A stretch of DNA of 64,000 bases from Candidatus Forterrea multitransposorum CG_2015-17_Forterrea_25_41 (GTDB lineage: Archaea > Iainarchaeota > Iainarchaeia > Iainarchaeales > CSSED10-239), in contig CP045477.1 in the NCBI GenBank assembly GCA_009392915.1, positions 352,001 to 416,000 on the forward strand. The letters run 5' to 3'. The notes beneath the pieces are model-generated. The model was given only the letters and a program-made list of their open reading frames with translations, searched no databases and had not been told where the DNA came from. Each line of letters begins with the position of its first letter. Position 1 is the first letter of the stretch. Position numbers and translations under genes: made by a program. Positions 20,604-62,200 of this stretch are shown one piece after another.

Positions 20604-21185
20604 CTATTTTCTAAAACATTTAGTACATCTTGCTTGGTAACTATCAGTTCCACCTAAAACAACAGTTTCCTTAGATTCTCCTAAACGATATGTTTTAGTT
20701 GCAGTTTCTCCACAATGATTACAAACAGCATCTAAATGTATTAAAAAATCTGAAAGTGCCATTAATGTTCCAATATGTTCTTTTTTATCTTTAAAAGGAA
20801 AAGGTTTTCCTTCAAAGGTCTGGTTTAAACCACATGTAAAAACATTTATTCCTTTTTTTGAAACTTCTAAAATTACATCTATAATATCTGATGTAAAAAA
20901 TTGCACTTCATCTATAAAGATATTAACTAAAGGTATTTCTTTACTTCTTTGAGAAGATAAATATTCTTCTACATTCTTTAAAATTTCTAAAGGAGAATTA
21001 ACAACAATTGCTTCTTCTTTAATACCATTATGGTTAACAATTGATTTTTCATCATATCTATTATCAAGTTTAGGTTTAAAGACAAAAGAATGTCTTTTTG
21101 CAACCTCTTCTCTTGACTTAAGTCTTAGAAGTTCTGTTGTTTTTCCTGAAAACATTGGTCCTGTTATTGTAGTTATTTTTCCCAT
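20604..21185 (-). CDS. tdk: thymidine kinase
   Basis: P-loop GPMFSGKTTELL, FIDEVQFF, and C-terminal zinc ribbon CNHCG...CTKCF. Confidence 0.85.
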   Translation of the reverse strand: MGKITTITGPMFSGKTTELLRLKSREEVAKRHSFVFKPKLDNRYDEKSIVNHNGIKEEAIVVNSPLEILKNVEEYLSSQRSKEIPLVNIFIDEVQFFTSDIIDVILEVSKKGINVFTCGLNQTFEGKPFPFKDKKEHIGTLMALSDFLIHLDAVCNHCGETATKTYRLGESKETVVLGGTDSYQARCTKCFRK

Positions 21186-24997: not shown

Positions 24998-25025
24998 CGC
25001 CTGCAAGCTTGGCGGAAAGCTTAAG
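24998..25025 (-). promoter_or_regulatory. conserved 28-nt tRNA 3' trailer hairpin (CTTAAGCTTTCCGCCAAGCTTGCAGGCG) directly after tRNA-Ala
   Basis: Identical, apart from one base, to the trailer after tRNA-Gly at 30261-30288. Contains two palindromic AAGCTT hexamers that can form a 6-bp stem. Confidence 0.5.
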
Positions 25026-25098
25026 TGGACTCTGCGAGATTCGAACTCGCGGCCTCGTCCTTGCAAGGGACGCGCTCTACCAGCTGAGCTAAGAGCCC
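25026..25098 (-). tRNA. tRNA-Ala (TGC)
   Basis: Hand-folded. G3:U70 identity pair. Anticodon loop CTTGCAA. T-arm CGAGTTCGAATCTCG. No encoded CCA. Confidence 0.9.
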
Positions 25099-25300: not shown

Positions 25301-25364
25301 GTTAGGTAAGTTTTTAAAACTTTTAAAATAACAACTAACATTTAGTCATTATATAAAATAGGAG

Positions 25365-26854
25365 GTGATCCGTCCGCAGGTTCCCCTACGGACACCTTGT
25401 TACAACTTAGTCTACCTCGCGAAATATAGAATAACTTTATCCTTTAGTAGAGTAAAGTTCATCAACACTCCACTCGGTTGGCTTGATGGGCGGTGTGTGC
25501 AAGGCGCAGGGACATATTCACCGCGTGATAGTGACACGCGATTACTGGGGATTCCAGCTTCATGAGGGTGAGTTGCAACCCTCAATCCGGACTTAGACTA
25601 AGTTTTTGAGATTGCCACCCCTTTTCAGGTTAGATACTCTTTGTCTTAGCCATTGTATGCCGCGTGTTGCCCAGAACATTCACGCTATACAGACCTACCT
25701 TCGCCCACTCCTTCCTCATTGTTACCAATGCAGTCCTATTAGAGTGCCTTCTTTTGCAAGCAAAAAAAGTAGCAACTAATAGCATGGGTCTCGCCCGTTA
25801 CCTGAGTTAACAGGAAGCTTCACAGTACGAGCTGACGATGGCCATACAGCAGTTCTCAGCGCATCAGGTAACCCCTTCAGAGTGACCATCATATTGCTGT
25901 CAGCCCTGGTAAAATATCTGGCGTTTCATCCAATTAAACCGCAGCATCCACCCCTTGTAGTGCACCCCCGCCAATTCCATTAAGTTTCAGTCTTGCGACC
26001 ATACTTCCCAGGCGGTGAATTTAATGGTTTCCCTTCGGCCCTGAGCTAACTCGTAGTTAACCCAACACCTAATTCACATCGTTTACGGCTGGGACTAACC
26101 GGGTATCTAATCCGGGTTGCGCCCCCAGCTTTCGTATCTCACTGTCGAATCCGTACTCGTTAAGCGCCTTCGCCACAGGTGGTCTTTTTAGTATCTTAAG
26201 ATTCTACTCCTACTCTAAAAATACCCTTAACGTCTTCCGGTTCCTAGTCATGCCAGTATCTTTTGCAATTCAACTAGTTAGGCTAGCTGCTTTCACAAAA
26301 GACTTAACAAACCAGCTACACACGCTTTAAGCCAAATAATGCTGGATACCACTTGGGGATTACGTATTACCGCGGCGGCTGGCACGCATATTGCCCTCCC
26401 CTTATTCACATAGTTATTCACACTATATAAAAGCTTACATAGTAAGCACTTGGAATCTCTTTATCACGATTTCTCGCATTGTAAAAGTTTCGTAACTGCT
26501 GCACCCCGTAGGGCTAGGGACATTATCTCAGTTCCCTTCTCCGGGCTACCTCTCTCAAGGCCCGTACAGATCTTCGGCTTGGTAGGCAGTTACCCTACCA
26601 ACAACCTAATCTGGCGCAGTCCCATCCTTTCGCGCCAAAGAAGCATGATTCTTTGACCTTTAAAATAGTAATCATTCCAGATTTACTTTTTTATAGAGCA
26701 TTATACTCAGTTTCCCGAGTTTAACTCTTCAAAAGGGTAGGTTGACCACGTGTTACTGAGCCGTTCGCCAAAACCTCTCATAGCTGAGGCTTTAAGACTT
26801 GCATGTCTTAGTCAGATTCCAATAGCAGTATCCACCAGCAGGATCAGCTGGAAT
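25365..26854 (-). rRNA. 16S rRNA (archaeal)
   Basis: 5' ATTCCAGCTGATCCTGCTGG... and 3' ...GTAACAAGGTGTCCGTAGGGGAACCTGCGGACGGATCACCTCCT read on the minus strand. Universal segments (GTGCCAGCCGCCGCGGTAA etc.) present. About 1490 nt. Confidence 0.9.
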
Positions 26855-32504: not shown

Positions 32505-33377
32505 TTATTTAAATTTATAAGCTATAATTTTATATACTAATTTTGCTAAAAAATAACTCTCAGAAGAAAAATTCCAATTAGCCCCTTTTGGTGAAAATTC
32601 AACAATGTCAGCACCAATAATTTCTTTTTCTTTAAAAATTAAATTTAAAATTTTCATTGTTTGATTCCAATTAAATCCACCTGGTTCAGGAGTATTTGTA
32701 TTTTTAATAATTGAAGGATCAAAAAAATCAACATCAATAGATAAGAATATTTTTTTTGGTAATTTTTTTAATTGTTTTTTAAAATTATTTAAAGATTTAT
32801 GTAAATTATCTGCATATATTACAGAAACATTTTTTCCATCTTTTGTTTTTAAAAAATCATATTCATAAAAATCTTGAGATCTAACCCCTGCAATTAATGT
32901 TTTATGATTTTTAGAAATATATCTTGAAACACAAGCATGATGCCAAGTATCTTTTCCCCATTCTTCTCTTAAGTCAGAGTGAGCATCAAGAACTATTATT
33001 CCAAAATCTTTTTCAATTTTTTCAAAAGCAGAAACTACAGGAAAAGTTGTTGAATGATCAGAACCTAAAATTATTGGGAATTTAAAAGAAGAAATATTTT
33101 TATAAACAGCATTTGAAATTTCTTTTGAAACTTTAAAAAAATCTTCTTTATTTTTTAAAAAATTAATTTCTTTAAAAGTATAAATTCCATTAAGATAAGG
33201 TTCTGTTTTTAAATCACAATCAAAATATTCAAGTTCATAAGAAGATTTAATAATTTCTTTTGGTCCCTTATAAGCACCCTCTCCAACAGTTACTTTACCA
33301 TTATAAAGTAAAGGTAAAATACATATTGAAGATTTATCTTTATTTGAATATTCTTTTAAAAGATTTAAAAATTGCAT
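32505..33377 (-). CDS. agmatinase/arginase-family ureohydrolase
   Basis: Mn-binding motifs LDAHSDL and SIDVDFFDP, plus GGxS-like TFPV region. Confidence 0.75.
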   Translation of the reverse strand: MQFLNLLKEYSNKDKSSICILPLLYNGKVTVGEGAYKGPKEIIKSSYELEYFDCDLKTEPYLNGIYTFKEINFLKNKEDFFKVSKEISNAVYKNISSFKFPIILGSDHSTTFPVVSAFEKIEKDFGIIVLDAHSDLREEWGKDTWHHACVSRYISKNHKTLIAGVRSQDFYEYDFLKTKDGKNVSVIYADNLHKSLNNFKKQLKKLPKKIFLSIDVDFFDPSIIKNTNTPEPGGFNWNQTMKILNLIFKEKEIIGADIVEFSPKGANWNFSSESYFLAKLVYKIIAYKFK

Positions 33378-33380
33378 ACA

Positions 33381-35027
33381 TTATCTTTTTTTAACATATT
33401 TTTTATTTTTTACAATTTTTTTTTGTTTCTTAATATCTTTCTTTACTTTTTCTCTAAACTTTGTATCATCTTTTTTTCCATCATTAAAAGAGGATCTAGG
33501 ACCATCTCTCTTTCTATCACCATCAAAGGAAGATCTTGGTTTATGTTTGTCAAAAGAAGGTCTAGGACCATCTCTTTTTCTATCTCCATCAGTATGTGGT
33601 CTAGGTTTATGTTTATCAAAAGAAGGTCTAGGACCATCTCTTTTTCTATCACCATCAAAGGAAGGTCTAGGACCATCTCTTTTTCTATCATCATGGAATC
33701 TATTTTTAGATCTTTGATTTTCAAAAGAGCTTTCAGAAACTGCTCTTTTTCTATCTCTAAAACTTGTTTCATTTCTTGTTGTTCTTGGATTTTGAGAACC
33801 TCTTGATTTTCTTAAAAAACCTACTTGTTTATTAAAAAAATCTTTTGCTCTAATATCTGATTTATTATTTGTATTTTTTTCAACATCTCTAGTCCTATCA
33901 AAAGAAACAACTTTAACTTCTGGAACATCAATTTTTTTAATTGAAAAACCAAATCTTTTACACATTTTTATAAATGTAGGTTCATCTCTATAATCAATAA
34001 AAGTTATTGCTTTTCCTTCTTGACCAGCTCTTGCAGTTCTTCCTATCCTATGAACATACTGAGTATCATCTTTTGGAAGATCATAATTATAAATATATTC
34101 AAGATTATCAATATGTATACCTCTTGCAGAAACATCACTTGATATTAAAACTGCAGTTTTATGAGTATGATATTTATCTATAGTGTGTGTTCTTTTTCTT
34201 TGTTCAAGTCCACCATGAAGTTTAAATGCTTCAACTCCATTTTTAATTAAATTATTATAAATTACATCAACTTCTCTTCTAGTATTTGAAAATACAATTG
34301 ATTTTTTAGGATTTTCTTTAATTAAATGTAAAAGAAGAGAAAATTTTTGATTTGATTTAACAACATAATATTCTTGTAAAAGTTTTGAAGGATCAACTTT
34401 TGATTCAACAGAAACTCTTTCTGCATTTGGAATATATTTTCTTTCAATATTTGAAACATCTTTTGTAATTGTTGCAGAAAACATTAAAGTTTGTCTATGT
34501 CGTGGAATTTTATCAATAATTTTTGAAATATCTTCTGCAAAACCCATATCACACATTCTGTCAGCTTCATCTAATATTAAAAATTTAACTCCCTTTAGAT
34601 TTAAATTACCTCTATTCATTTGATCGATTATTCTTCCTGGAGTTCCAATTACTATGTCTGAAAATCTAATATCTTTTGCTTGTTGAGAAACAGATTCTCC
34701 TCCGTAAACAGCACATGAAATTAATTTTTTAACTTCAGACATTTTTTTAACTTCTTTAAAAACTTGCAAAGCAAGTTCTCTTGTTGGAACAATAATTAAA
34801 GCTTGAACTTTCTTTTCTTTATTAACATTTGGTAAAATACCTGAAAGAAAAGCTACTGTTTTTCCTGTTCCTGTTGCAGATTCTGCAATTATATTTTTAC
34901 CTTCTAAGATTAAAGGTATTGTTTTAATTTGTATTTCAGTAGGTTTTAAAATACCCATATTTGTTACTGCTTGTAATATAGTTTTATCTTTAATTAAACT
35001 ATTAAAATTTTCATTAGAATTAGTCAT
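33381..35027 (-). CDS. DEAD-box ATP-dependent RNA helicase with C-terminal R/D/G-rich tandem repeats
   Basis: Q-motif, AESATGTGKT (motif I), DEAD, SAT and HRIGRTAR present. The C-terminus carries 5 copies of DGDRKRDGPRPSFDKHKPR. Confidence 0.85.
   Translation of the reverse strand: MTNSNENFNSLIKDKTILQAVTNMGILKPTEIQIKTIPLILEGKNIIAESATGTGKTVAFLSGILPNVNKEKKVQALIIVPTRELALQVFKEVKKMSEVKKLISCAVYGGESVSQQAKDIRFSDIVIGTPGRIIDQMNRGNLNLKGVKFLILDEADRMCDMGFAEDISKIIDKIPRHRQTLMFSATITKDVSNIERKYIPNAERVSVESKVDPSKLLQEYYVVKSNQKFSLLLHLIKENPKKSIVFSNTRREVDVIYNNLIKNGVEAFKLHGGLEQRKRTHTIDKYHTHKTAVLISSDVSARGIHIDNLEYIYNYDLPKDDTQYVHRIGRTARAGQEGKAITFIDYRDEPTFIKMCKRFGFSIKKIDVPEVKVVSFDRTRDVEKNTNNKSDIRAKDFFNKQVGFLRKSRGSQNPRTTRNETSFRDRKRAVSESSFENQRSKNRFHDDRKRDGPRPSFDGDRKRDGPRPSFDKHKPRPHTDGDRKRDGPRPSFDKHKPRSSFDGDRKRDGPRSSFNDGKKDDTKFREKVKKDIKKQKKIVKNKKYVKKR
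33470..33695 (-). repeat. intragenic tandem repeats (about 57-nt unit) encoding the helicase RDGPRPSFD tail
   Basis: Repeated ggaccatctctttttctatcaccatcaaaggaagg units. They create spurious overlapping ORFs on both strands (33372-33806 and 33443-33772). Confidence 0.7.
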
Positions 35028-35150
35028 ATTTAATTTTCCTTTTTTTAATTTTATTAAATAAGTTTATAACTTATAAAAGTATTAAACTCAATATATATTT
35101 ATGAAACAAATAGTTTAAAAAGAGCAAAGAAATCCTAAACAAAGCAAAGA

Positions 35151-36044
35151 TTATTTAACAATACCTTTATTTTTTGCAAAATCAAGTATTTCTTTAGGAT
35201 TTTTTAAATTTACATCTAAATATTCACTATTTAACATTTTAAAATCTGCAGAAAAAACATCTATTAAATATAATTTAATTTCTCCATTTGAAAGTCTTTT
35301 ATAAAAACAATTTTTTGGAGTAATATCTAAAATTTGAATAGAATCTTTTAACATAAAATTTGCAGTAACATCCATTAAATTATTTTTGATTTGTAAAAAT
35401 TCTTTTTCAGAAATTAATTTCTCTAAATATCCTTGTGTTACATTTTTAAGAGAAGTAAAATCATATGCAATAAAATGAATTCCTTTTTTAAGATGTGTTT
35501 TAGAAAAAGCAAATCTTGGCTTGATTATAGAAATTCCATTTTGTTCAAGATATTTTAAAAGAATCATTTCTTGAGCAGCATTTTTATAACTATAATTATC
35601 AAGAGCTACTTTAATATATAATGATTTATTTCTACCATTTTTATTTATGGTTAATTTATAAGAAGTAACAGTATTTCTTGACAAATAACTTAAAGATAAT
35701 TTTAAGGGTTCAACCTTAAATCTTCTCTTAGGATCAATATAGGAATATTCTTTTTCACTATTAATAATATTTTGTCTAAATTTTAAAGAGGATTTATTAA
35801 TTTTTCCTTCACCACCAAAAGATTTAAATAAATCATATATAACTTCAATGGAACTTGGAATATAATCTTTATAACCTTTTTTTCCTATACCTCTAGTGTA
35901 ATTTACTAAAGACTTAATTTTAGGATCATAAACAATCAAACTTGATGGAGAATCTTTAGATTTATATTTAGAAGTTTCAATATGTTTTAAAGGAGGTTTT
36001 GAAATTTTGGATGTGTTTTTTTTTAATCTAAAAGGTTTTATCAT
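35151..36044 (-). CDS. divergent protein-kinase-like (ELK) fold protein; paralog of 21207-22001
   Basis: YIKV (beta3 Lys-like), IKPRFAF, DFTSLKN, ILDITPKNCFYKR (HRDxKPxN-like) and YLIDVF (DFG-like). Confidence 0.4.
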   Translation of the reverse strand: MIKPFRLKKNTSKISKPPLKHIETSKYKSKDSPSSLIVYDPKIKSLVNYTRGIGKKGYKDYIPSSIEVIYDLFKSFGGEGKINKSSLKFRQNIINSEKEYSYIDPKRRFKVEPLKLSLSYLSRNTVTSYKLTINKNGRNKSLYIKVALDNYSYKNAAQEMILLKYLEQNGISIIKPRFAFSKTHLKKGIHFIAYDFTSLKNVTQGYLEKLISEKEFLQIKNNLMDVTANFMLKDSIQILDITPKNCFYKRLSNGEIKLYLIDVFSADFKMLNSEYLDVNLKNPKEILDFAKNKGIVK

Positions 36045-36050
36045 AATTAT

Positions 36051-37097
36051 TCAGTCTATTATTTCTATTTTTGGTCTTTCTAAATTAAAAAGATCAGTAT
36101 AGTAAATATAAGCTCCTGCATTTAAGAAAATAACTTTATCTCCTATCTTTGGAACATATCCTTCCTTAAAATATACTCTATATCTAAAAATATCTTCTGA
36201 AGCTGGAGTTAAACCTTTAATTGTATAAGGTTTAAGAGTATTAGTTTCACTTTCTCCATCAACTAAAAGTTTAATATGAGTAACTAAAGTATCCATTGAA
36301 CAATTAAATAAAGATGCATCAATAAAAATAGTATCATCAACAATATTTTTTATAGTTGTAATTAACTTTCCTGAAGGTGCAGCAATACTTCTTCCAGGTT
36401 CAGTTAAAAGTTTAATATTTAAACTATTTAAAAATATTTTAAGTTCTTTTAATTTATCATAAATAACCTCTATTGTTTTAGGATTAATGTTTTTATATAA
36501 AACAGGAAGCCCTCCTCCAATATCTAAAAAATCAATTTTTTCTAAAGTTTCTTTTATAAGAGAAGATGAAATCTCTTCAATTAAAGACCATTCAGATAAA
36601 TTTTGTGTTTTTCTATGGAAATGAACACCTAACTTTTCAATTAAAGGATTATCTTTTAATGAAATAATTAAATCATTAATTTCTTTTGAATAAAAACCAT
36701 AAACAAAAAACTTACCAGTAACAACAGTATATTCTTTAAGTCTCATTCTTAAAAGTAAAGTTATCTTATAATTATTTTTTTTAATTTCTTCTAAAAGAAA
36801 ATTTAAATCATTTTTATTATCAACAATAAATTTATCAATTCCTTCTTTAAAAATTACACTAATCTCTTCTTTATCAGGAGAATGAAGCATATACCATATT
36901 TTTTTTTTATCTTTTATTTTTTCAATCTCATTATTATGATGTATTAAAAAATTAGAAGAGGTGTTTTCTTCTAAAACTGAAGTAATATAAGGATTAGACT
37001 TAACACTATAACAAACAATATCAGATAACTTTTCTACTTTTTTATATTCTTTTAATATTTTTTCTTTTGAAAAAACAAATTTTGCATTTGATTTCAT
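36051..37097 (-). CDS. PLP-dependent fold-type III decarboxylase (ornithine/diaminopimelate/carboxyspermidine decarboxylase family)
   Basis: The PLP-Lys motif CYSVKSNP and the DIGGGLPV glycine loop are visible. Specificity cannot be assigned from sequence alone. Confidence 0.6.
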   Translation of the reverse strand: MKSNAKFVFSKEKILKEYKKVEKLSDIVCYSVKSNPYITSVLEENTSSNFLIHHNNEIEKIKDKKKIWYMLHSPDKEEISVIFKEGIDKFIVDNKNDLNFLLEEIKKNNYKITLLLRMRLKEYTVVTGKFFVYGFYSKEINDLIISLKDNPLIEKLGVHFHRKTQNLSEWSLIEEISSSLIKETLEKIDFLDIGGGLPVLYKNINPKTIEVIYDKLKELKIFLNSLNIKLLTEPGRSIAAPSGKLITTIKNIVDDTIFIDASLFNCSMDTLVTHIKLLVDGESETNTLKPYTIKGLTPASEDIFRYRVYFKEGYVPKIGDKVIFLNAGAYIYYTDLFNLERPKIEIID

Positions 37098-37104
37098 TTA
37101 AACA

Positions 37105-37734
37105 TCACACTTTTAAAACATAAGATGGAAGCTCTAGTTTTAGAGAGATTTCTTTTCCTTCTTTTGTAAAACACTTTAATTGATTTCTTTCAAAATCATA
37201 TGAAACAACTTTCTTTACATTATTTTTTGAAAGTATTTCTCTGTATTTATTAATTCTATTAAGATTTGCAGGAGTTTTTTCTAACTTAAAACCACCTATA
37301 TATTTTGAAAAACCTTTAAACTCTTCAAAAAACCAAGTTTCTAATTTTATTTTTTTAAATTTATTTATTTTAGAAAATTTAATTAAAAAGTCAGCATATT
37401 TTTTTATATCATATAAATTTCTTAAAGAGTTTTTATTATCATTTTTAAAAATTGTTTTTGAAAAATGTATACCATCTCTTTCAATATAAGATAGGAAAGA
37501 TACATATTTTGATTCTCCAACAATTGTTGTTCTTTTTTTATCAGTTAAGAAAGTAACTATTTTATCTTTATTAATAGCTTCATTTAATTCTTTTAAAGAA
37601 GGCTTTTCTGGAAAATATTCATACTTAACATCTTTATATCTTTCATTTAGTTTCTCATAAACACTTTTTTCTCTTTTGAAAGGATTTATTTTTTTTATAC
37701 TGGACCTAACTTTTGAAATACTTTTTTTAATCAT
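37105..37734 (-). CDS. hypothetical protein
   Basis: ORF track; no motif recognised. Confidence 0.4.
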   Translation of the reverse strand: MIKKSISKVRSSIKKINPFKREKSVYEKLNERYKDVKYEYFPEKPSLKELNEAINKDKIVTFLTDKKRTTIVGESKYVSFLSYIERDGIHFSKTIFKNDNKNSLRNLYDIKKYADFLIKFSKINKFKKIKLETWFFEEFKGFSKYIGGFKLEKTPANLNRINKYREILSKNNVKKVVSYDFERNQLKCFTKEGKEISLKLELPSYVLKV

Positions 37735-37737
37735 ACT

Positions 37738-38673
37738 TTAAAGCACTCCTTCTTTTTTTAAAGTATCAAGAGCAGAAACCATAGCTATTGGAAAAGTAAT
37801 TGTAACATCTCCAATAACAGTCACTGCATCAGAATTATCTTTAATCTTACCCCAAGATTTAGCTTCATCAGTTGTTGCACCAGAAAGACTTCCTGAACGA
37901 GGAGAGGCAGTTGTCATATAAAGAGCATAATCTGCTCCACCATTAATTAAAGTTGTAAGAATAATATGATGTTTTGAAACTCCACCACCAAGAGCAACAA
38001 TTCCTTTTTTTTCATCATGTGATGTTGAAAAAATAATATTTCTAAAATCATTAATAATATCAACATTAAAATCTTTATGTTCTTCTTTAAACAAATATAA
38101 ATGAAAACCAAAAGAGCCATCTGTTATTGCAGGACAAAAGACAGGAACATTGTTTATTGCTGCTTGATAAAGTATTGATGAAGGATCATTTAACTTAAGA
38201 CCAATCTCTCTTAAAAGTTCAGAGATTGTTAAAGATTTTTTTTCTTTATAAACTTCTAAAAGTAAATTTTTAATTTTTGCTTCAAGTTTTTGGTATTGAT
38301 CATTTGTAATTAAAATATTACCAACTCTATTTTCTCCTCTTTCATATAATTCTTCATCATTTGAAGAAAATGAACCTAAAATAAACTTATCTCCATCAGC
38401 TTTCATAATATCTTCTTCAATTGAACCTACAGTTGTAACTATAACATCACACATTTTCTTTTCAATTAACTGTGCAAAGAAACCTCTTAAACCAGAAGTT
38501 ACCATGTTAGAAGTAAATGAAAAATAAACTTTTGCACCTTCTTTTTTCATTTTAACTAAAAGATCAGATGCTCTTTTAAGTTCATAACTTTGAAAACCTA
38601 TCTTTCCATAACCTTCTAATAATTCTGAAACTGTTAAATTTTCTTTCCATAAAAAATCTTTTGTATAATCCAT
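37738..38673 (-). CDS. dys: deoxyhypusine synthase
   Basis: GGGVSKHH motif and overall collinearity with DHS (NAD-binding, spermidine-binding regions). Confidence 0.85.
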   Translation of the reverse strand: MDYTKDFLWKENLTVSELLEGYGKIGFQSYELKRASDLLVKMKKEGAKVYFSFTSNMVTSGLRGFFAQLIEKKMCDVIVTTVGSIEEDIMKADGDKFILGSFSSNDEELYERGENRVGNILITNDQYQKLEAKIKNLLLEVYKEKKSLTISELLREIGLKLNDPSSILYQAAINNVPVFCPAITDGSFGFHLYLFKEEHKDFNVDIINDFRNIIFSTSHDEKKGIVALGGGVSKHHIILTTLINGGADYALYMTTASPRSGSLSGATTDEAKSWGKIKDNSDAVTVIGDVTITFPIAMVSALDTLKKEGVL

Positions 38674-39932: not shown

Positions 39933-40538
39933 TTAAATTAAATGAGTTAAAGAAAGGTTTAATTTTAAAAGAGGATCTTGATAGAACTTTAAGATATCTT
40001 GATCTTCTCTAAGTCCATTATTATGCATTATTGCTTGAAATTTAGTAAATAGTTTTGTTGTAGCATAAACATCTGACATTGCTCTATGAGCATATTCGTT
40101 TTTAATATCAAAATAATTACATAAAGATGATAGCCTATAGCTTGGCATTGTTGAAATTATTTTTTTTGCAAGATTCATGGTACAAATATTTTTATTTTCT
40201 AAAGTTTGATTTAAATGTAAATTAAGATTATGATTTATAAAACCAATATCAAAAATAGCATTATGTGCAACTAAAATATCTTTTTTAATAAAATCTATAA
40301 AATTAGGTAAAACTTCTTGAATAGTTGGTTTTTCTTTAACCATATCATCTGTAATTCCTGTAAGTTGTGTAATTTCAGCTGGAATTTTCATTTGAGGATT
40401 TATTAATGTCTCAAATTTATCAACAATTCGATTTCCTTCAAGCTTTAAAGCAGCAATCTCAGTTATTTGATCTTTTGATCTATTAAGACCTGTTGTTTCA
40501 ATATCTAAGACAATGTATCTTCCAAGCATGTTTTTCAC
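39933..40538 (-). CDS. DEDDh 3'-5' exonuclease (DnaQ/epsilon-like)
   Basis: Exo I VLDIETTGL, Exo II LVAHNAIFDIGFI and Exo III HRAMSDVYAT. Confidence 0.7.
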   Translation of the reverse strand: MKNMLGRYIVLDIETTGLNRSKDQITEIAALKLEGNRIVDKFETLINPQMKIPAEITQLTGITDDMVKEKPTIQEVLPNFIDFIKKDILVAHNAIFDIGFINHNLNLHLNQTLENKNICTMNLAKKIISTMPSYRLSSLCNYFDIKNEYAHRAMSDVYATTKLFTKFQAIMHNNGLREDQDILKFYQDPLLKLNLSLTHLI

Positions 40539-40710
40539 CAGTTATGTATTATAAAATTATTTTTTAAGATTGTTATATTTAATATAGAACAACAGCTTTA
40601 AAAAAAGAACCATTAGTTTTCTTAACTTTTTATGTAGTGATTTAATTTTATTCTTTTTAGAAATATAAAAATAGTATTTATAATACTATTTATGGTACTA
40701 ATTATATATT

Positions 40711-41364
40711 ATGATACCAAAAATAACACCAAAAATATTTCCAAAATCAAAGATTGGAAGAAATAAGTTTAATAAAACATTAAAAAACGATCCTTCAGTT
40801 AAAAGAACTGAAATTCAACTTCTATCTATCCCTGGAAAAGGAATACATGATGTTTCTTCAAATAGACGAAAATATAGAGTTGGAAGAGATACTTTAAAGT
40901 TTGAAAAAATACTTAATGAAAGAGTAAAAGAATCTTTTAGAAAAAAATTAAGAAACTTAGAAAATAGAAGTCAACTTTTACACACACATATAACAAAAAG
41001 AAAATCTAAGAGTACTAAAGAAGAATTTGGAATGGCTCTTCCATCAAAATCAGATATTATTTCTTTTATGGAAGATAGAAGAAAAACTATTAAATATCAA
41101 ATAATTTCTGTAATTGACCCTAAGATTAGAAAACCTATAGGATATACAACTATTAAGATTAACACTTTAAAAGCAACACCTAAACAATTTATTGAAAGAA
41201 TAGATGGGTTTATTACAAAAGAAACTATTAAAAATGCTGAATATAAAAAACATATTTTTGAAATGATGGAAAGTTTAGGTATGGAGATTTATTTCACTCC
41301 TGAAGATGGTTATTCCTTAAATAGAAATTTTAATTATGTGAGGAAAAATGAAGCCAAGAAATAG
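40711..41364 (+). CDS. hypothetical protein, family A copy 1 (N-terminal PKITPKIFPK...; GYTTIKIN; C-terminal EIYFTPEDGYSL)
   Basis: Paralogous to the next gene, which overlaps its stop by 17 nt. Confidence 0.45.
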   Translation: MIPKITPKIFPKSKIGRNKFNKTLKNDPSVKRTEIQLLSIPGKGIHDVSSNRRKYRVGRDTLKFEKILNERVKESFRKKLRNLENRSQLLHTHITKRKSKSTKEEFGMALPSKSDIISFMEDRRKTIKYQIISVIDPKIRKPIGYTTIKINTLKATPKQFIERIDGFITKETIKNAEYKKHIFEMMESLGMEIYFTPEDGYSLNRNFNYVRKNEAKK

Positions 41365-42043
41365 TCCAAGAATAACTCCAAAAGTAAAAGCTTTGCCAAA
41401 GATAGGAAAAGTAAAATTTTCAAAAGAAATCAAAACTCTTGAAATTAATAAACTAAATAAAGTTGCTTTCTATAAAGCTCCTGGAGAAAAACCTGTAAGC
41501 ATTTCAGGAGATAGATTGAATTCTTTTGCAGTTATTGATTCTGCAAAGTTTGATGCTATTTTTAAAAATATTAATAAAAAAAGAACAGATACTGGAAAAA
41601 AATCTATAGATAAAGAAAAGGGAAGTCTTTTTTATTTTAAACTACAAGACCCTAAACTTAAAGGAAAATATAACAATGGAAATGCAATTCCTGATCTTTT
41701 TTCACTTATTGATTCAATGTTTAAATATCCTAAAACAAGACATGGTTATGATGTTATGGCTGTTGTAAGTCCAGAGAAAAAAGTCTTAGGATATACCACT
41801 GTTAAAATAAATCATGCATTTATGAAAAAAATACTTCCAGAAATTGAAAATAAAACTATTAAAAATAGAAATGATTTTACAAGAAAAATAGTACATCTGC
41901 TTTCGAATATGGAAGGAAATATTAAAAATAAAGAAACTGTTTTTAATGTTTTAAAAGTTTTAGAAAAGATTGGCTTTGAGGTTTATTTTACTCCTGAAAA
42001 AGGATATAAGCTTGATAAGGAATATAGATTTATTAAAGAATAA
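41348..42043 (+). CDS. hypothetical protein, family A copy 2 (GYTTVKIN; EVYFTPEKGYKL)
   Basis: Collinear with the N-terminal, central and C-terminal motifs of copy 1. Confidence 0.45.
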   Translation: MKPRNSPRITPKVKALPKIGKVKFSKEIKTLEINKLNKVAFYKAPGEKPVSISGDRLNSFAVIDSAKFDAIFKNINKKRTDTGKKSIDKEKGSLFYFKLQDPKLKGKYNNGNAIPDLFSLIDSMFKYPKTRHGYDVMAVVSPEKKVLGYTTVKINHAFMKKILPEIENKTIKNRNDFTRKIVHLLSNMEGNIKNKETVFNVLKVLEKIGFEVYFTPEKGYKLDKEYRFIKE

Positions 42044-44832: not shown

Positions 44833-45291
44833 CTACATTAATAATTCTAATTCTTTATTTAAAAAAATAATATTTTTATTATTTTCTTTTTTAACAAGAA
44901 CAATATTTTTTTCCTTAAGTTTTTTAATTAGCCTATGAGCTTTTATTTTGCCATATTTTTTTGCTAAAACCAATTGTTCTATTCTACCATTTTTTTCAAT
45001 AATATAACTTAAGAATGATTTTTCTTCAAAAGATAATATAGAATAAATAGTATTTTGATTTGAAAAAATAATTTTATTTTTTTTAGTTAAAGATAAAGAA
45101 TGAAGATAATAAAATAAAGATATTGAAAATATAATGATTAATAATATAAAAATAAAAAAAGTGTTTTGAGAAATAACATTACTACAAGTACAATCTTTTC
45201 CACTTAAATAATCTTTTTCAAGAAATATAAAAAAGATTATAATAGATATAAAAGAAATTATCGAAATTATAAAAGAATATTTTGATTGCAT
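44833..45291 (-). CDS. small membrane protein with C-terminal wHTH-like segment
   Basis: Two TM helices, then a KNGRIEQLVLAKKYGKIKAHRLIKKLKEKNIV HTH-like region; weak. Confidence 0.35.
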   Translation of the reverse strand: MQSKYSFIISIISFISIIIFFIFLEKDYLSGKDCTCSNVISQNTFFIFILLIIIFSISLFYYLHSLSLTKKNKIIFSNQNTIYSILSFEEKSFLSYIIEKNGRIEQLVLAKKYGKIKAHRLIKKLKEKNIVLVKKENNKNIIFLNKELELLM

Positions 45292-45352
45292 AATAAAAAA
45301 TAAAGTACAAAAAACTTTAAAAAGAGATGTTTCATAAAAATGAAACTTCTAA

Positions 45353-45592
45353 AAAAAACAGTTACTATATATTGAAACAAGATTTAAAAATAAAACTATT
45401 AAAAATAAAAATTACTTGACAAGAAAAATAATAAACCTAATTTTAAATATTAAAGAAAATATAAATAAAAAAAGAAGAAATGTTTCTAATGTTTTAAAAA
45501 TTTTAGAAAAGCTTGGTTTTAAAGTTTATTTAACTCCTGAAAGAAGATATAAGCTTGATAAGGATTATAATTATGTAATAGACGGAAAATAA
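45353..45592 (+). pseudogene. decayed C-terminal fragment of a family-A gene (third copy of the 40711-42043 paralogs)
   Basis: The frame reads ...NKTIKNKNYLTRKIINLILNIKENINKKRRNVSNVLKILEKLGFKVYLTPERRYKLDKDYNYVIDGK* with no start codon and an in-frame TAA at 45350. Clear nucleotide similarity to 41838-42043. Confidence 0.5.
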
Positions 45593-45728
45593 TTTTTATA
45601 AGTATAATTTAATCTTTTTTAAAATAATTGAACATAAGGTTAAAATAATTCGTAATTATCAATACATATAATATATAAAAATATTTTTAAATATTAGCAA
45701 TAACAGTACCAACAAAATACATTTATTA

Positions 45729-45775
45729 GGTATCTTTGTTGCCAAAAGCTTCTGGCGGGAATTGAACCTAAAGGG
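45729..45775 (-). other. degenerate tRNA 3'-end fragment (T-loop GGTTCAATTCCCGCCAG) fused to a decayed copy of the conserved tRNA trailer (AAGCTTTTGGC)
   Basis: Aligns with the tRNA-Gly T-arm and trailer GGTTCGAATCCCGACGAG...AAGCTTTTCGCC, but cannot fold as a tRNA. Confidence 0.3.
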
Positions 45776-45786
45776 AAAAGTGCTTT

Positions 45787-46743
45787 TTAATATCTAGATG
45801 GTTGAATTAAAGTTATTAAATAATCTTTCTTTAAAGAAGTCATAAGCAATTCAACTCTAAACCCTGTGTCTTGTAATATTTGTACAATTGAACCCATTGT
45901 AAATTTATAAGATCTGCCTATTAATAAAAAATCATCTTTTTCAAGTTTTATTTTTTCAGAACCTATCTCAATATAAATATCATCTTTTAAATAAATGGTT
46001 TGCTCAACCTGATTTAATAAAATATTCCAAGCAACATTATATTCTACTTGATCATCTTTAATTCCAAGATAATGTGGAACAAACATAACAAAATTATAAG
46101 CACCTGTTATTTTATATTTATTAATTATATTATCTGTTTTATAAATATTAGATAATTCTACACCTAATAACATATAATCATCTGAGCCCATTGAATCACG
46201 AATATTAGTAAGAACTCTTTCTCTATTAAAATGATTTCCTAAAGTAGAACCTAAAAAACAAAGTAAATTATTAAATCCATCTTTTTTTAAAGTATAAATT
46301 ATATCTGAAAATTGACCTTGCTCAAAATCAATATTGATAGGTAATATTTCTACATCAAATTTTTTAGATATATTATTTTTAGCTAAATTTAACATAGAAT
46401 TACTTATATCTATAGGCACATATCTAAAAACAATATTATTCTCTTTTAAATAATCTAAAATAGGTAATATTGGCTCACCAGTTCCACAACCAAGATCAAT
46501 AATATTTAGTTTAATATCCTTTAAATCGTAAGTAGATATTATATCTTGTATTCTTTTTTTAAGTAAAACAGATTCATTAGAATTAATTGTATTTTTAGAA
46601 TTAGCTCTTAAATTTGAAATATTAAACCAATTTTCTGCTCCTTTATCTAAATAAGCAAATTTTAATGGTATTTCACCAGTAGCCTTAATAGAGGTAATTA
46701 ATTCAAATTCTTGTTTTTGTGATAACATAAATAAATTATACAT
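45787..46743 (-). CDS. class I SAM-dependent methyltransferase
   Basis: Motif I IIDLGCGTGEP and motif II/III spacing; substrate unknown. Confidence 0.65.
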   Translation of the reverse strand: MYNLFMLSQKQEFELITSIKATGEIPLKFAYLDKGAENWFNISNLRANSKNTINSNESVLLKKRIQDIISTYDLKDIKLNIIDLGCGTGEPILPILDYLKENNIVFRYVPIDISNSMLNLAKNNISKKFDVEILPINIDFEQGQFSDIIYTLKKDGFNNLLCFLGSTLGNHFNRERVLTNIRDSMGSDDYMLLGVELSNIYKTDNIINKYKITGAYNFVMFVPHYLGIKDDQVEYNVAWNILLNQVEQTIYLKDDIYIEIGSEKIKLEKDDFLLIGRSYKFTMGSIVQILQDTGFRVELLMTSLKKDYLITLIQPSRY

Positions 46744-46817
46744 ATACTATTTAAATAATTTTCGGTTAAAATCTATTTTTAAACTTCTTATCGGTAATTG
46801 AACCTTATAAAAAAAAA

Positions 46818-51791: not shown

Positions 51792-52295
51792 TTAGAAGGG
51801 TTTATAAAGGTTACCGATATATTGGTAATATTGGTAGTATATAAACTTAACCAATATAGCTATTAACCAATACTTCTTTTTATACTCTCTAGCATCAATT
51901 CTTTCTTTTAATTTTATTCTTTCTTCTACAAGTTCTTGTTTTCTTGTCTGAATTGCAAAATAACTTTGAGCAAATGCAATTTCTTCTTTTCTTGAGTCTC
52001 CATTTTGTGCTATTAAGTAACATGCATATCTAGTTAATGTATAATCAATTATTTCTCTTTCTGCATCAGATCCTAATTTAACCTTTTTCCTGACCTCAAG
52101 AAAATGGTCATTAATATTAAATCCTGAATTTTTACAAGAAATTTTTGCTTTTTCAATTATACTTACAAAATTTTCCCATTTAGTATAACCTAAAAGGTCT
52201 TGTAACTCCCTTGCAAGCCAAAATTCAAGATTATCTTTAAAATAAGCACTATCTTGAAAACTTTTAGTTAGTTTATAAATTATTTCTCTTTGCAT
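51792..52295 (-). CDS. DinD-like (DNA-damage-inducible protein D / BRO-N-like) protein
   Basis: The N-terminal half is collinear with E. coli DinD: FWLARELQDLLGYTKWENF...NDHF...GSDAEREIIDYTLTRYACYLIAQNGD...YFAIQTRKQEL. Confidence 0.65.
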   Translation of the reverse strand: MQREIIYKLTKSFQDSAYFKDNLEFWLARELQDLLGYTKWENFVSIIEKAKISCKNSGFNINDHFLEVRKKVKLGSDAEREIIDYTLTRYACYLIAQNGDSRKEEIAFAQSYFAIQTRKQELVEERIKLKERIDAREYKKKYWLIAILVKFIYYQYYQYIGNLYKPF

Positions 52296-52346
52296 AGAAC
52301 ATCACATATATATAAGAGTCTTTAATTTATATATTGATTTTGTAAG

Positions 52347-52367
52347 AGAGGGTAAATGGCCGAGAAA
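52347..52367 (+). repeat. 21-bp direct repeat AGAGGGTAAATGGCCGAGAAA (copy 2)
   Basis: Exact match to 48811-48831. Confidence 0.6.
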
Positions 52368-52382
52368 GAGAAGAATAGAATT

Positions 52383-52934
52383 TTATTTTAATAAAGCATA
52401 AAGATAATTATCATATACTTTACCATTATAGATAGCTGATTTTTTTAAAAGCCCTTCTTTTTTAAATTTACTTTTTTCTAAAACTTTAATAGAGCCTATA
52501 TTTTTAGTACAAACTTCAGCTGCTATTCTTTTAATACAGGTATTTTTAAATAAAAAATGAATATATGCTTTTATAGCTTCAGACATAAATCCTTTATTCC
52601 AATAAGAAGAATGAAGCATAAAACCTAAATCACATCTTTTAAAATCTTTAATAATTGTAAAAATATCAATAGAGCCTATTAATTTATTTTCATAAGTTAT
52701 AAAAAAAGAAGCTCCTTTTCTTTTTTTCCAAGCATCTACTTTTCTTAAAATTTGTTTTTCTACAATCTTTCTTGAGTTTTTATTATCTCCAGAACCATTA
52801 TATATCCAGAGATTTTTATCTTCATATAACTTATAAAGTTCTTCTTTATATTTTATATCTGGTTTTATAAGTAATAATCTTTTTGTCTTTACTGGCTTAT
52901 ACTTATAACCTTTGTTAAATATTTTTTCATCCAT
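52383..52934 (-). CDS. GNAT acetyltransferase (RimJ/RimL-like)
   Basis: Motif A region and the C-terminal ...KVLEKSKFKKEGLLKKSAIYNGKVYDNYLYAL typical of the RimL family. Confidence 0.7.
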   Translation of the reverse strand: MDEKIFNKGYKYKPVKTKRLLLIKPDIKYKEELYKLYEDKNLWIYNGSGDNKNSRKIVEKQILRKVDAWKKRKGASFFITYENKLIGSIDIFTIIKDFKRCDLGFMLHSSYWNKGFMSEAIKAYIHFLFKNTCIKRIAAEVCTKNIGSIKVLEKSKFKKEGLLKKSAIYNGKVYDNYLYALLK

Positions 52935-53619
52935 GGTTTAACCTTTTATATTCTTTAATTGCTTTATTAAGTACATTTAAAAAATTAGGATCTTTTTTCC
53001 ATTCTTCTAAAATAAATACTCTTAATTTAGAATGTTTAGAATAACCATCATCTTTAATTTCTATTAAATCTTTAAATTCCTCATTAATTATTACTGTAAA
53101 AGATTCTTTAATATCATGAATTTCAGATTCAGATAAATTACTTTCTTTACAAACGTTCCAAAAATAACTATGAAAGAATAAATGCATAAGCTCATGAATT
53201 ACAACTCTAAATAAATATTTATCCACATATTCGATATAAATGAATATTCCAAACCACTTTTGGTTTTTTCTAAATTCATAAGGACAAGCAACAAAAGTAT
53301 TATATTTAATATATACTTTATTAACAGGAAATTTATTTTTGTGAATCTTTTCTAATTTATTTATTATCTCATCCTTATATTTATTCAATTTTAGATTAGA
53401 ATTATAAAAATTAGTTAAATACTTTTTAGAATAAAATTTTTTAGTGTATTTATCTATTAACTCAACTTTTTTAGAATCAGATGCACTTATTAAAGAATTT
53501 TTAAAATCCTCAGGATAATCTTTAAACCAATCATTACCATAAGCACTAGAGTTTTTAATAAATTTAAGCCAATTTTTTAAATTTTCTTCTTTTGATACAA
53601 TAAATTCTATTTCAACCAT
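52927..53619 (-). CDS. putative HExxH zinc-metallopeptidase-like protein
   Basis: VVIHELMHLFFH motif; otherwise unassigned. Confidence 0.4.
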   Translation of the reverse strand: MVEIEFIVSKEENLKNWLKFIKNSSAYGNDWFKDYPEDFKNSLISASDSKKVELIDKYTKKFYSKKYLTNFYNSNLKLNKYKDEIINKLEKIHKNKFPVNKVYIKYNTFVACPYEFRKNQKWFGIFIYIEYVDKYLFRVVIHELMHLFFHSYFWNVCKESNLSESEIHDIKESFTVIINEEFKDLIEIKDDGYSKHSKLRVFILEEWKKDPNFLNVLNKAIKEYKRLNHG

Positions 53620-53627
53620 AATAAATC

Positions 53628-54008
53628 TTAAATTTCAATTATGTATTCTTTTAAAACTTTTGTACCCCATATTCTAAACTGAGTTGCTTTAGATGAATTT
53701 ACTCTATATCCTACTGATATTATTGCATCTAAATTATAAAAATCAACATTTCTTTTAACATCTCTAGTTCCTTCTTTTTGAACTATTAGGAATTTCCTAA
53801 TAGTTTGATTTTTATTTAACTCTGCAGAATCATATATATTTTTTAGATGTTCATTTATAGTTGGGATTTCAACTCCAAATAATTCTGCAATCCTTTTCTT
53901 AGTTAACCATATATTTTCATTATAAATATAAACATCTAATTTTACTTCTCCATCTGGAGATTTATACAATAAAAATTTATTATTTTTAGAAATGATCTCT
54001 TTAGTCAT
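53628..54008 (-). CDS. RhuM-family (virulence/phage-associated) protein, N-terminal domain only
   Basis: NLDAIISVGYRVNSSKATQFRIWGTKVLKEYI is the hallmark RhuM segment. The gene is about one third the usual length. Confidence 0.6.
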   Translation of the reverse strand: MTKEIISKNNKFLLYKSPDGEVKLDVYIYNENIWLTKKRIAELFGVEIPTINEHLKNIYDSAELNKNQTIRKFLIVQKEGTRDVKRNVDFYNLDAIISVGYRVNSSKATQFRIWGTKVLKEYIIEI

Positions 54009-58566: not shown

Positions 58567-59220
58567 TTAAGTATAAATTATTTTACTTTTTATAAATTTA
58601 ATTTCAAGTTTTTCTGTGCATTTAATTTTAATTATTATATTTGCACTTTTTGAAAAATTATCTGCAAAAATATTTATGTTTGAACTAATTTTATATATTT
58701 TATTTTTTTCAAATTTAATTTTAGGAAATCCAATAGGTATTTGTTTAATCATAGGTAAAATATTTCCATTTATATTTACACTTCCTTCAAAAAAATTAAA
58801 TAAATCTAAATAATGCAATTCATTTTTAGATAAATTAAAATTTTCTTTACCTTCAGAACATTTACCTTTATGAGTTGCACTCCAGACAAAATAATTAGGA
58901 TCAAAAGGATATATTTTTTTATTATTCAATTTTATTTCATTACATTTAATTTTAATATTGTTTATTGCTATTGAACCTATATTTATTACTTTTATTCTAA
59001 AATAAATTAAATTACAACTTGAACCATCATGTTGATTAATATAAATTTTATTAATCTTATGAACACAGTTAACATCATCTAAATCAATTTTAATTTTTGG
59101 TTTTTTAATAAAATTAATAATATCTTCTTTAAATAATGCAACAACTACTGCACATAGAGTTAAAAAAGCCATAATTATTTGAATAATTGAATCTAAATTA
59201 TTTTCAACCATCAATACCAT
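58567..59220 (-). CDS. single-pass membrane protein of unknown function, translationally coupled to hsdR (17-nt overlap)
   Basis: N-terminal TM IIQIIMAFLTLCAVVVALF; no motifs. Confidence 0.45.
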   Translation of the reverse strand: MVLMVENNLDSIIQIIMAFLTLCAVVVALFKEDIINFIKKPKIKIDLDDVNCVHKINKIYINQHDGSSCNLIYFRIKVINIGSIAINNIKIKCNEIKLNNKKIYPFDPNYFVWSATHKGKCSEGKENFNLSKNELHYLDLFNFFEGSVNINGNILPMIKQIPIGFPKIKFEKNKIYKISSNINIFADNFSKSANIIIKIKCTEKLEIKFIKSKIIYT

Positions 59221-62200
59221 CTCTACAAATTCTTTCTGCTTGTTCTAAAACCAATTTTACTGCTTCTGCTTGCATATCAGGAGGATAACCATACTTTGAA
59301 AGAATTCTCTTAACCAAAACTCTTATCTTTGCTCTTTCAGTTTCTCTAATTTCCCAATCAACGCTTGTTGTATTCTTTTTAATAGTATCTGTTAAAATTT
59401 TTGCAATAACAACTATTTGTTTATCCCCTAAAACATCTAAAGCACTTTTATTATTTGAAAGAGCATCATAAAAAGCAACTTCATCTTCGGATAAATCAAG
59501 TTCTTCACCTTTCTTTTCAGAAGCTTTAATTTCTTTTGCAATTTTTAATAGTTCTTCAATAACTTCAACAGTTGTTATACTTCTATTAGTATATAATTTA
59601 ATAATATTTTCAATCATTTCCTTAAAAGATCTTTGTTTTACAATATTTTTTCTAAATCTGGATTTAATTTCATCATTAAGAAGTTTTCTATACATCTCTA
59701 ATGCTAAATTCTTTTGAGGTAAATTTTTAATTTCAAGCATAAATTCTTCAGAAAGTATAGAAATATCTGGTCTTTTAAGTCCTGCAACTTTTAAAACATC
59801 CATAATTCCAGAAGACATTATTGATTTTGAAATTAATTGATTTAAATTTTGTTCTAAAAGCTCAGTTTGAGAAATATTTCTAGTAACAGTATTTTTTACA
59901 AACTGTGATTTAATTGCTTGGAAAAATGCAATTTCTTCTTTTAAATCTAAAGCTCTTTTATCAGGAACTGCTAAAGAGAATGCTCTTAAAAGATTAATAG
60001 TTGCATCAATAAATCTTTTTTTACCATCTTCTTGTTTTAATATATGTTCCATTGCATTAATTAAAAGCTTCATTCTATAATTTGTGTCTTTATTTTCTAA
60101 ATCATATTCAAACTTATATAATAAAGATTTAACAACATCATATTTATTTAATAATAAATTTACTGCTTCTTCTTGATTAATTCCAACCTTTTGTTGATCT
60201 TTTGGAGAATAATTACCTAAGGCTTCTTTTAATTGAGTAAGTATACTTATATAATCTACAATTAATCCACCTTGTTTTTCTCCAAAAACTCTATTTACTC
60301 TTGCAATTGCTTGCATTAAATTATGGTCTTTCATTGGTTTATCAATATACATTGTATGAAGAGAAGGAACATCAAAACCAGTAAGCCACATATCTCTTAC
60401 AATTACAAGTTTAATCTCTGAAGAAGGATCTTTAAAAACATCTCCAATTTCTCTTCTTTTTTCTGAATTTCTAATATGTCTTTGCCAGTCTAAAGGGTCA
60501 GTTGCGTTACCAGTCATTATTACCTTTAAAAATCCTTTTTTATCATCTTCGTTATCCCACTCTGGTTTAATTTTTATTATTTCATTATATAAATCTACAC
60601 ATATTCTTCTAGACATACAAACAATAATACCTTTTCCTGGCATTCCTAGTTGTCTTTCTTGGAAATGATTTATTATATCTTTTGCAATTTCTTTAATTCT
60701 TTCAGGATGACCTATTATTTTTTCAATTCTTGCCCATTTACTTTTTAATTGTTCTTTTGTATCTTTTTCTTCAGTTTCTGTTACATATTCAAAATCTTTA
60801 TCTAAAGTTATTTGAGATTCTGGATTTAAAGATATTTTTGCAAGTCTACTTTCATAGTAAATAGGAACTGTCATTTTATCTTCAACAGCTTTACTGATAT
60901 CATAAACATCTACATTTTCTCCAAATACATTTCTTGTACTTTTATCACTTTTTTCAATTGGAGTTCCTGTAAAACCAATATAGGTTGCATTTGGAAGAGC
61001 ATCTCTTAGGTTTTTTGCAAAACCTTCTAAAAAACCATATTGTGATCTATGTGCTTCATCAACAATAACAACTATATTTTCTCTATTTGATAGTTCTGGA
61101 TAAACTTCTCCTTTATTTTCTGATGAAAATTTTTGAATTGTTGAAAAAATAACTCCTCCAGAAGATACTTGTAATAGTCTTTTAATTTCTTCTCTATCTT
61201 CTGCTTGTTTTGGATCTTGTCTTAAAACATCTTTACATTTTGAAAATGTTGTGAAAAGTTGATCATCTAGTTCGTTTCTATCTGTTAAAACTAATAAAGT
61301 TGGATTGTTTAGTTGTTGTATAACTTTTCCTGAATAGAAAAGCATGGTTAATGATTTTCCTGAACCTTGAGTATGCCAAACAACACCTGCTCTTTTATCT
61401 TTTCCTTTAACAGCTTTAATTGTTGAAGATACTGCATTGTTTGTTGCATTATATTGATGATATGCTGCTATTTTTTTAATAGTTTTATCTTTATCTGCTT
61501 CATAGACTATAAAATTGTTTATTAAGTCTAATAATGTTTCTTTATTTAACATTCCTCTTATTAAAACTTCTAATTGTGTTAAATAAGAGGCTTGATCTTT
61601 ATATATTGTTTTCCAGATCATGAATCTATCTAGATTTGAAGAAATTGTTCCAACTCTTGTGTCTGTTCCGTCTGAAATTACTAAAATTTGATTATAGTTA
61701 AAGATTGTTGGAATTTCTTGTTTGTATGTTTGTAATTGGTTGTATGCTTTTTTAATATCTGCATTTTCATCTGTTGGATTTTTTAATTCTATTAAAACAA
61801 CTGGTATTCCATTTATAAATAAAATAATGTCTGGTCTTCTGGTATGTTCAGTTTCTTTAATTGTAAATTGGTTTAATGCTATAAATTCATTATTGTTTAT
61901 GTTATCTTTGTCTATTAAGTTTATTTTTATCCATTTTAGGTTTCCATTTATTCTTGTTTGAACGGTTATTCCTTCTGTTAGATATTTGTAAATTTGTTTG
62001 TTGTTTTCTATTAGTTTTTGTGATTCTATTCTTTGTAGTTTTTTAATAGCTTCTTGTTTTGCATCTTCAGGAAGATTTGGGTTTATATCACTTATTTTTC
62101 TTTTTAAAGTTTCATTTAAGAGCACTTGTGAGAAATCATCTCTTTCTGGTCTTTGGCTATCTGGAGCTATGTCTACTCCATTAAGTTTAGTGTAACCTAT

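Follow-up and report, generated by a model that had tools for sequence, protein, structure and literature searches.

The gene pair at issue

The question addressed here is what two adjacent, overlapping archaeal genes, A and B, encode and why they have stayed together. They lie in a 64-kb window, by which we mean the whole stretch of 64,000 nucleotides analysed (positions 352,001 to 416,000 of contig CP045477.1, Candidatus Forterrea multitransposorum). A preliminary description of this DNA considered that the family could not be assigned and that the genes were duplicates undergoing decay. We find that both products are predicted to adopt the JAB/MPN fold, that A carries an intact JAMM active-site motif and that B has lost it. 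In the reading we consider probable, A is a JAMM protease with an independently evolved MPN- partner, B, in the manner of Rpn8-Rpn11, CSN6-CSN5 and Abraxas/KIAA0157-BRCC36.

The window has a G+C content of about 24% and contains an archaeal 16S rRNA gene. Relatives of A and B come from metagenome-assembled genomes named Candidatus Iainarchaeum, Candidatus ainarchaeum or Diapherotrites (phylum Iainarchaeota, DPANN), and JGI contig Ga0100385_1000001 (619 kb) encodes a protein identical to that of gene A. The features of the pair are as follows.

40711 to 41364, plus strand: gene A, 217 amino acids, predicted divergent JAMM/MPN+ metalloprotease
40810-40812, 40981-40983, 40987-40989, 41044-41046 and 41053-41055: predicted catalytic codons of gene A, for E34, H91, H93, S112 and D115, respectively
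41348 to 42043, plus strand: gene B, 231 amino acids, predicted MPN- paralog and pseudoenzyme with all five JAMM residues replaced
41348 to 41364, plus strand: overlap of A and B, 17 nt, the stop region of A lying over the start of B

The tandem arrangement, the two lengths and the 17-nt overlap were correctly described before, and the paralogy is unambiguous, with 28% identity over 228 columns and the full length of the proteins (BLASTP, E 2e-20). The common motifs reported earlier are likewise real: an N-terminal P-K-I-x-P-K...K-I-G-K-x-K-F, a central GYTT-x-KIN and a C-terminal YFTPE-x-GY-x-L are kept in all orthologs. An overlap of stop and start is the layout expected for translational coupling and, because the genes overlap, they are probably both co-transcribed and translationally coupled.

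JAMM motif and predicted fold of A

Alignment of the A-type proteins reveals a conserved Q-L-L-H-T-H-I...A-L-P-S-x-S-D-I, preceded by E-I-Q-L-L-S-x-P-G. This pattern matches the JAMM motif E...HxH...SxxD, the full set in A being E34...H91-x-H93...S112-x-x-D115. In 41 family members that share about 20% identity, H93 and D115 never vary and conservation reaches 90% or more at E34, H91, S112 and P111; one relative (P0046) has near-canonical JAMM spacing, HTHPSEGLFVPSHED.

The structures of A and B were modelled with AlphaFold2 without templates, using two orderings of one shared alignment of 18 sequences. The A model reached a predicted local distance difference test score (pLDDT) of 79.7 and a predicted template modelling score (pTM) of 0.78, and the B model a pLDDT of 71.4. 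In the A model the HxH ends a strand (87-94), the SxxD starts a helix (113-123) and E34 stands ahead of a further strand (36-40); the same structural positions are held by the JAMM residues in solved JAMM enzymes. The predicted structure of A has the MPN (JAB1/MPN/Mov34) fold, with the catalytic motif on its canonical elements at a deviating His-to-Ser spacing. The A and B models, run separately, both retrieve MPN domains almost exclusively, the structural matches of B including Rpn11 (7.3), BRCC36 (7.2), JAMM1 (7.1) and Rpn8 (6.9). We regard the fold assignment and the contrast between an active and a dead paralog as solid. Judged by predicted fold plus motif, A would be a highly divergent JAMM/MPN+ zinc metalloprotease of the JAB superfamily that belongs to no described family. 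By analogy with solved JAMM enzymes, H91, H93 and D115 would hold the zinc, E34 would activate the water and S112 would stabilise the intermediate.

Gene B as a conserved dead paralog

In B the equivalents of E34, H91, H93, S112 and D115 are K38, Y96, K98, D116 and S119. The metal ligands and catalytic residues are lost while the MPN fold is retained in the prediction, with an additional helix inside the helical insertion that precedes the C-terminal strands. The two His and the Asp are missing from all B-type orthologs, which form a single clade in a neighbour-joining tree. This clade falls outside the group made up of A and the single-copy proteins, a position that could reflect long-branch attraction, so that the duplication is not dated from this tree. 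Intermediate states exist, in that the five positions read E, H, A, N, T in L014 and P0019 and E, H, Q, S, Y in P0023. No orthology of B to Rpn8, CSN6, eIF3f/h or Abraxas was found; its detectable sequence relatives are solely the members of this archaeal family, A included.

The view that A and B are a duplication with ongoing decay does not survive comparison with the closest relative, L001, against which A has a ratio of nonsynonymous to synonymous substitution rates (dN/dS) of 0.27 and B one of 0.18. Both genes are under purifying selection by this measure. B is not decaying, and it is best described as a conserved, putatively catalytically dead paralog. Conservation in its remodelled segments, residues 91-100 and 111-130, exceeds the B-clade mean. 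We suggest that B arose inside the Iainarchaeota by duplication of an A-like gene, and that it kept the MPN fold and structural motifs (GYT, F-T-P-E-x-G-Y) as it replaced all five catalytic residues.

Retention of the pair

The A-B order is found in the window, in L001/L002/L011, L003/L004/L012 and L009/L010/L013 and in L035, with overlaps of 17, 17, 4, 14 and 4 nt, respectively. In a sixth lineage, L034, the order is swapped to B-A and the genes overlap by 4 nt. Wherever a two-gene locus was read, across these six lineages, B adjoins or overlaps an A-type gene. The B protein of L034 is 69% identical to the B-type protein P0022, 40-69% identical to B-types and 36% identical to its own neighbour; because it is closer to other B-types than to that neighbour, the pair has evidently remained together during a rearrangement rather than forming a second time. 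Within the L034 locus (3386-4737), the paralogs share all of their first 18 residues after the start (MKPNIKPKSKIGKNKFEK), the remainder being 36% identical, which suggests either gene conversion or a strongly constrained basic N-terminus.

Identity to the proteins of the window across the six lineages ranges from 47 to 77% for A orthologs and from 40 to 85% for B orthologs, and since the pair is present in all six at such distances the duplication is evidently old. The age of the pair is a second point against decay. Copy number among relatives is not uniform: besides the pair in six lineages there is one intact copy in the outgroup P0017 (more than 20 contigs), at the same place between the genes for deoxyhypusine synthase and a DEDDh exonuclease, and a B-like gene stands alone at the L014 locus, to which we return below.

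The main argument for a joint function of A and B is that adjacency and overlap have been retained in six lineages. Their products probably form a heterodimer, by analogy with known MPN pairs, in which B would support or direct the protease A. The best guess for a substrate is the C-terminus of a small protein modifier, or another protein tail, where A would cleave a peptide or isopeptide bond. A role in ubiquitin-like deconjugation or processing would be only the default guess that the superfamily provides.

The neighbours of the locus are syntenic housekeeping genes, namely those for deoxyhypusine synthase, the DEDDh exonuclease and UvrB. Two features lie immediately upstream of gene A.

39933 to 40538, minus strand: DEDDh (RNase_T/DnaQ-like) 3'-5' exonuclease, a conserved neighbour given as context only
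40539 to 40710, no strand: AT-rich intergenic region of 172 bp between the divergent exonuclease gene and gene A

Both promoters presumably lie within this intergenic region. The exonuclease gene adjoins the JAMM-family gene or genes in every Iainarchaeota-type locus read that extends as far as a neighbour (the window and nine distinct relatives' loci). It is divergent in the window, L001, L002, L003, L009, L014 and L034 and convergent in the single-copy loci L005-L008.

The third copy

A third, decayed copy had been placed at 45353-45592. The fragment is real and its decay is borne out, but the homology begins only at about 45381-45384, because 45280-45380 is intergenic sequence common to the window and to L001, where the copy is absent.

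45384 to 45592, plus strand: B pseudogene, a 5'-truncated 3' end of B of about 65 codons

At the protein level residues 158-229 of B match the frame ending at 45592 with 56% identity (tblastn, E 2e-17), and at the DNA level 45384-45569 matches 41844-42026 with 83.3% identity over 186 nt (E 1.6e-50). Stops lie just upstream in this frame, and a TTG at 45416 opens a 58-amino-acid reading frame (45416-45592) that JGI annotated as a gene. The motif YFTPExGY has become YLTPERRY, with loss of a family-invariant F and a nearly invariant G. Relative to B, dN is 0.243 and dS 0.284, a ratio of about 0.85, and the copy is a pseudogene that evolves neutrally. The dS value lies below the 0.67 found between the B genes of the window and L001 over the same region; this, together with the absence of the copy from L001, indicates a recent partial duplication that is now drifting.

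The pseudogene lies in a replacement segment specific to the window (45384-46810, against 10020-10526 in L001), next to uvrB, which contains the B fragment and a methyltransferase gene. The latter, of the Methyltransf_33 (EgtD-like) type at 45787-46743 on the minus strand, is missing from L001, which has there only a reading frame of 75 amino acids. The DNA of uvrB itself shares 95.9% identity with that of L001 and the colinear flank about 85%, a difference that hints at a recent recombination or transfer event at the uvrB junction. In the same segment the 15-mer GGTTCAATTCCCGCC (45754-45768, minus strand) resembles the T-arm and acceptor end of a tRNA and occurs once, with 0.01 expected. A tRNA remnant was considered, and ARAGORN and Rfam call no tRNA there; the 15-mer could be the remnant of an attachment site or a chance match.

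The wider family

For each of A and B, 8-9 orthologs were found among 5.8 billion sequences. When 1.84 billion representatives were searched exhaustively with HMMER profiles, 39 proteins were returned at E<=0.001, and a metagenome scan with a seven-sequence alignment returned mostly short contigs. Other DPANN-like contigs of low GC content are the source of the distant members, which have HxH...SxxD intact and often stand in tandem arrays, as follows.

L024, 875-3905: four copies
L022, 3-2191: three copies
L023, 37-1440: two copies

In a broader scenario, a previously unrecognised DPANN family of JAMM metalloproteases without a Pfam model expands readily in tandem and one duplicate in the Iainarchaeota became an obligate dead MPN- subunit, a prokaryotic reinvention of the MPN heterodimer. 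We put this forward tentatively, as slightly short of evenly likely. The neighbours of the distant members include genes for thymidine kinase, Orn/Arg decarboxylase, a KaiC-like ATPase and ScpA, and no ubiquitin-like or E1 genes were seen among them.

Weighing the alternatives

Several observations weigh against the proposal of a JAMM protease with a dead partner. Searches of Pfam and NCBIfam with A, B and their relatives gave nothing at threshold, the sub-threshold traces being Prok-JAB in P0047 (E 0.087) and DUF4329 in two members (E about 0.06). HMMER profiles against PDB sequences gave noise only, and A had no significant sequence match to a curated JAB-clan model or to a solved JAMM. The Foldseek matches to PDB were not significant (best E 0.03), although the top two were Rpn11. 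When compared by hhalign with a nine-member RadC alignment, assembled from plasmid records, the E, the HxH and the PSxxD fell in register, at E 0.0087 and a probability of 4.6%; with E. coli YicR the motif was also in register, at 1.9%. A has 18 residues between His and Ser and the family as a whole 8-26, where canonical JAMM proteins have 7-10. Because sequence-profile methods do not confirm the link, membership of the JAB superfamily rests on predicted fold and motif. As to function, no small open reading frames ending in GG and no ThiF or ubiquitin-like Pfam families were found in the 64-kb window, which is about 10% of the contig. A uniform cytosolic role of deubiquitinase type is made less likely by the transmembrane helices at the C-terminus, or the Tat-like signal, of some distant members. 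Finally, the L014 locus (uncultured archaeon SRP191223_co1_16, CAZQEL01) has a lone B-like gene between the exonuclease and UvrB genes, with the E and the first His kept and the other three JAMM residues lost; no A-type gene lies between these neighbours, and one may lie elsewhere in the L014 genome. As the B-like gene is alone at this locus, B-type proteins may work without A.

These points could be taken to mean that the MPN assignment is an artefact of an AlphaFold model built on a shallow alignment, with HxH...SxxD a coincidence. The alignment did hold only 18 sequences, and neither Foldseek nor any hidden Markov model provides a significant link. We nevertheless give this explanation almost no credence, given that two separately run models retrieve MPN domains almost exclusively, that pTM is 0.78 and that the five motif residues hardly vary among about 40 sequences at about 20% identity and occupy the strand end and the helix start where they are expected. 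A different question is whether the two proteins work together. It is possible that A is a JAMM protease and that B is an independent binding or scaffold protein, a decoy or an inhibitor, their adjacency being inherited from the tandem duplication and kept by the strong synteny of small genomes. The solitary gene of L014 favours this view, as does the conservation of the former active-site region of B in a new form, a sign that B may have its own function. We consider it unlikely, though deserving of serious attention, because the pair adjoins or overlaps in six lineages, also after the order swap in L034, and because an A-type copy may exist elsewhere in the L014 genome.

Two further explanations were considered. 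The proteins might act in the manner of RadC: jointly with the DEDDh exonuclease and UvrB, they would target nucleic acid or DNA-repair proteins instead of ubiquitin-like modifiers. This we consider a serious though rather improbable alternative: the hhalign match is not significant, there is no helix-hairpin-helix (HhH) N-domain, and the exonuclease is not a neighbour of the distant members, which adjoin genes for thymidine kinase, a KaiC-like protein and ScpA, so that the linkage is limited to the clade and could be due to synteny alone. The preliminary description saw in the locus the traits of fast-evolving interaction, defence or host-interface genes subject to duplication and decay. A truncated, neutrally evolving third copy does exist, arrays of 2 to 4 family copies occur in other DPANN-like contigs, and at 10-20 kb from the pair there are Bro-N/RhuM genes and a type I restriction-modification system. 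Against this stand the dN/dS values of A and B (0.18-0.27) and clade-wide synteny beside hypusine, polyamine and repair genes. PADLOC gave no match for A or B, PHROG matches all had E>0.04 and IMG/VR contained no relatives; neither protein was found to belong with known anti-phage defence or phage proteins. A defence or host-interface family therefore appears highly improbable. A JAMM protease accompanied by an MPN- partner is the reading that we retain.

Genomic surroundings

The window also holds a conserved polyamine/hypusine cluster (32505-38673, minus strand) of arginase, a DEAD-box helicase, Orn/Arg decarboxylase, a 209-amino-acid protein and deoxyhypusine synthase. The gene for the 209-amino-acid protein (37105-37734) has no Pfam match, and a counterpart of 205-221 amino acids is present between the decarboxylase and deoxyhypusine synthase genes in every relative examined.

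A second set of tandem paralogs occupies 19689-20141 and 20138-20521 on the minus strand (150 and 127 amino acids, no Pfam match), downstream of a thymidine kinase gene (20604-21185). They are homologous to a 143-amino-acid protein that recurs near thymidine kinase and the JAMM-family arrays in L023-L026. The 264-amino-acid reading frame upstream of the thymidine kinase gene (21207-22001) was considered as a hidden member of the JAMM family and set aside, as it reads kinase-like.

The 16S rRNA gene (25360-26854, minus strand) is followed by tRNA-Ala (25025-25098, minus strand). The rRNA genes appear to be unlinked, since there is no 23S rRNA gene in the 64-kb window that holds the 16S gene. 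Bro-N and RhuM-domain genes lie within 51792-54008, and 59204-63963 (minus strand) holds the type I restriction enzyme HsdR (59204-62260), preceded by an AAA_15/AAA_21 ATPase; PIN, HsdS and HsdM genes stand just past the window end in a sister assembly. The two regions together are likely to be a mobile or defence island.

Comparison with known systems

The known archaeal JAMM proteins PfJAMM1, HvJAMM1 and AfJAMM have no detectable sequence-profile similarity to this family. It differs from them in a longer and variable loop between HxH and Ser (18 residues in A, 8-26 overall), a conserved basic N-terminal segment, a helical insertion (157-188) and the extra motifs GYT and F-x-P-x-x-G-Y, and no SAMP or E1 neighbour is seen in the window. 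To our knowledge, the archaeal JAMM proteins have no catalytically dead partner. RadC is a JAB-fold protein linked to DNA transactions whose function is unresolved. Its signature, HNHPSG...PSxxD, was not found here with a significant match: RadC and YicR have HNHPSG where this family has HTH(I/P), the HhH domain is missing and the C-terminal motifs differ. The JAB deconjugases encoded in bacterial operons (CBASS Cap3, BilC and BubCD) differ from A-B in that the latter have no E1, E2 or ubiquitin-like genes nearby, no PADLOC match and a chromosomal housekeeping context.

Assignment of a fold and a probable chemistry to DPANN-like hypothetical proteins that domain databases have missed shows that a motif combined with a predicted fold can rescue annotation where hidden Markov models fail. 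The pair occurs in a narrow clade, and activity, partnership and substrate are proposed here by analogy. A naturally minimal gene pair in a genome assembled as a contig of about 0.6 Mb would offer a simple system in which to ask why JAMM proteases repeatedly recruit a dead paralog, and it also bears on how a homodimer becomes a heterodimer after duplication.

Pairs of an active and an inactive MPN protein (Rpn11-Rpn8, CSN5-CSN6, BRCC36-Abraxas) are central to ubiquitin signalling in eukaryotes. No description of the present family, or of prokaryotic MPN- partners, was found in the literature, and a structural paper of 2018 states that the MPN+/MPN- heterodimeric organisation is not known in archaea (PMC6043591). 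The A-B pair differs from Rpn11-Rpn8, CSN5-CSN6 and BRCC36-Abraxas/KIAA0157 in its independent origin, B being nearest to the A-type proteins, in the overlap of its genes and in having no PCI partners, and its heterodimer is suggested by analogy with theirs. The eukaryotic pairs are analogues of A-B and not relatives. If the broader scenario outlined above is true, the active/inactive MPN heterodimer, thought to be a eukaryotic hallmark of the proteasome lid, the COP9 signalosome and BRISC, would have been reinvented in prokaryotes.
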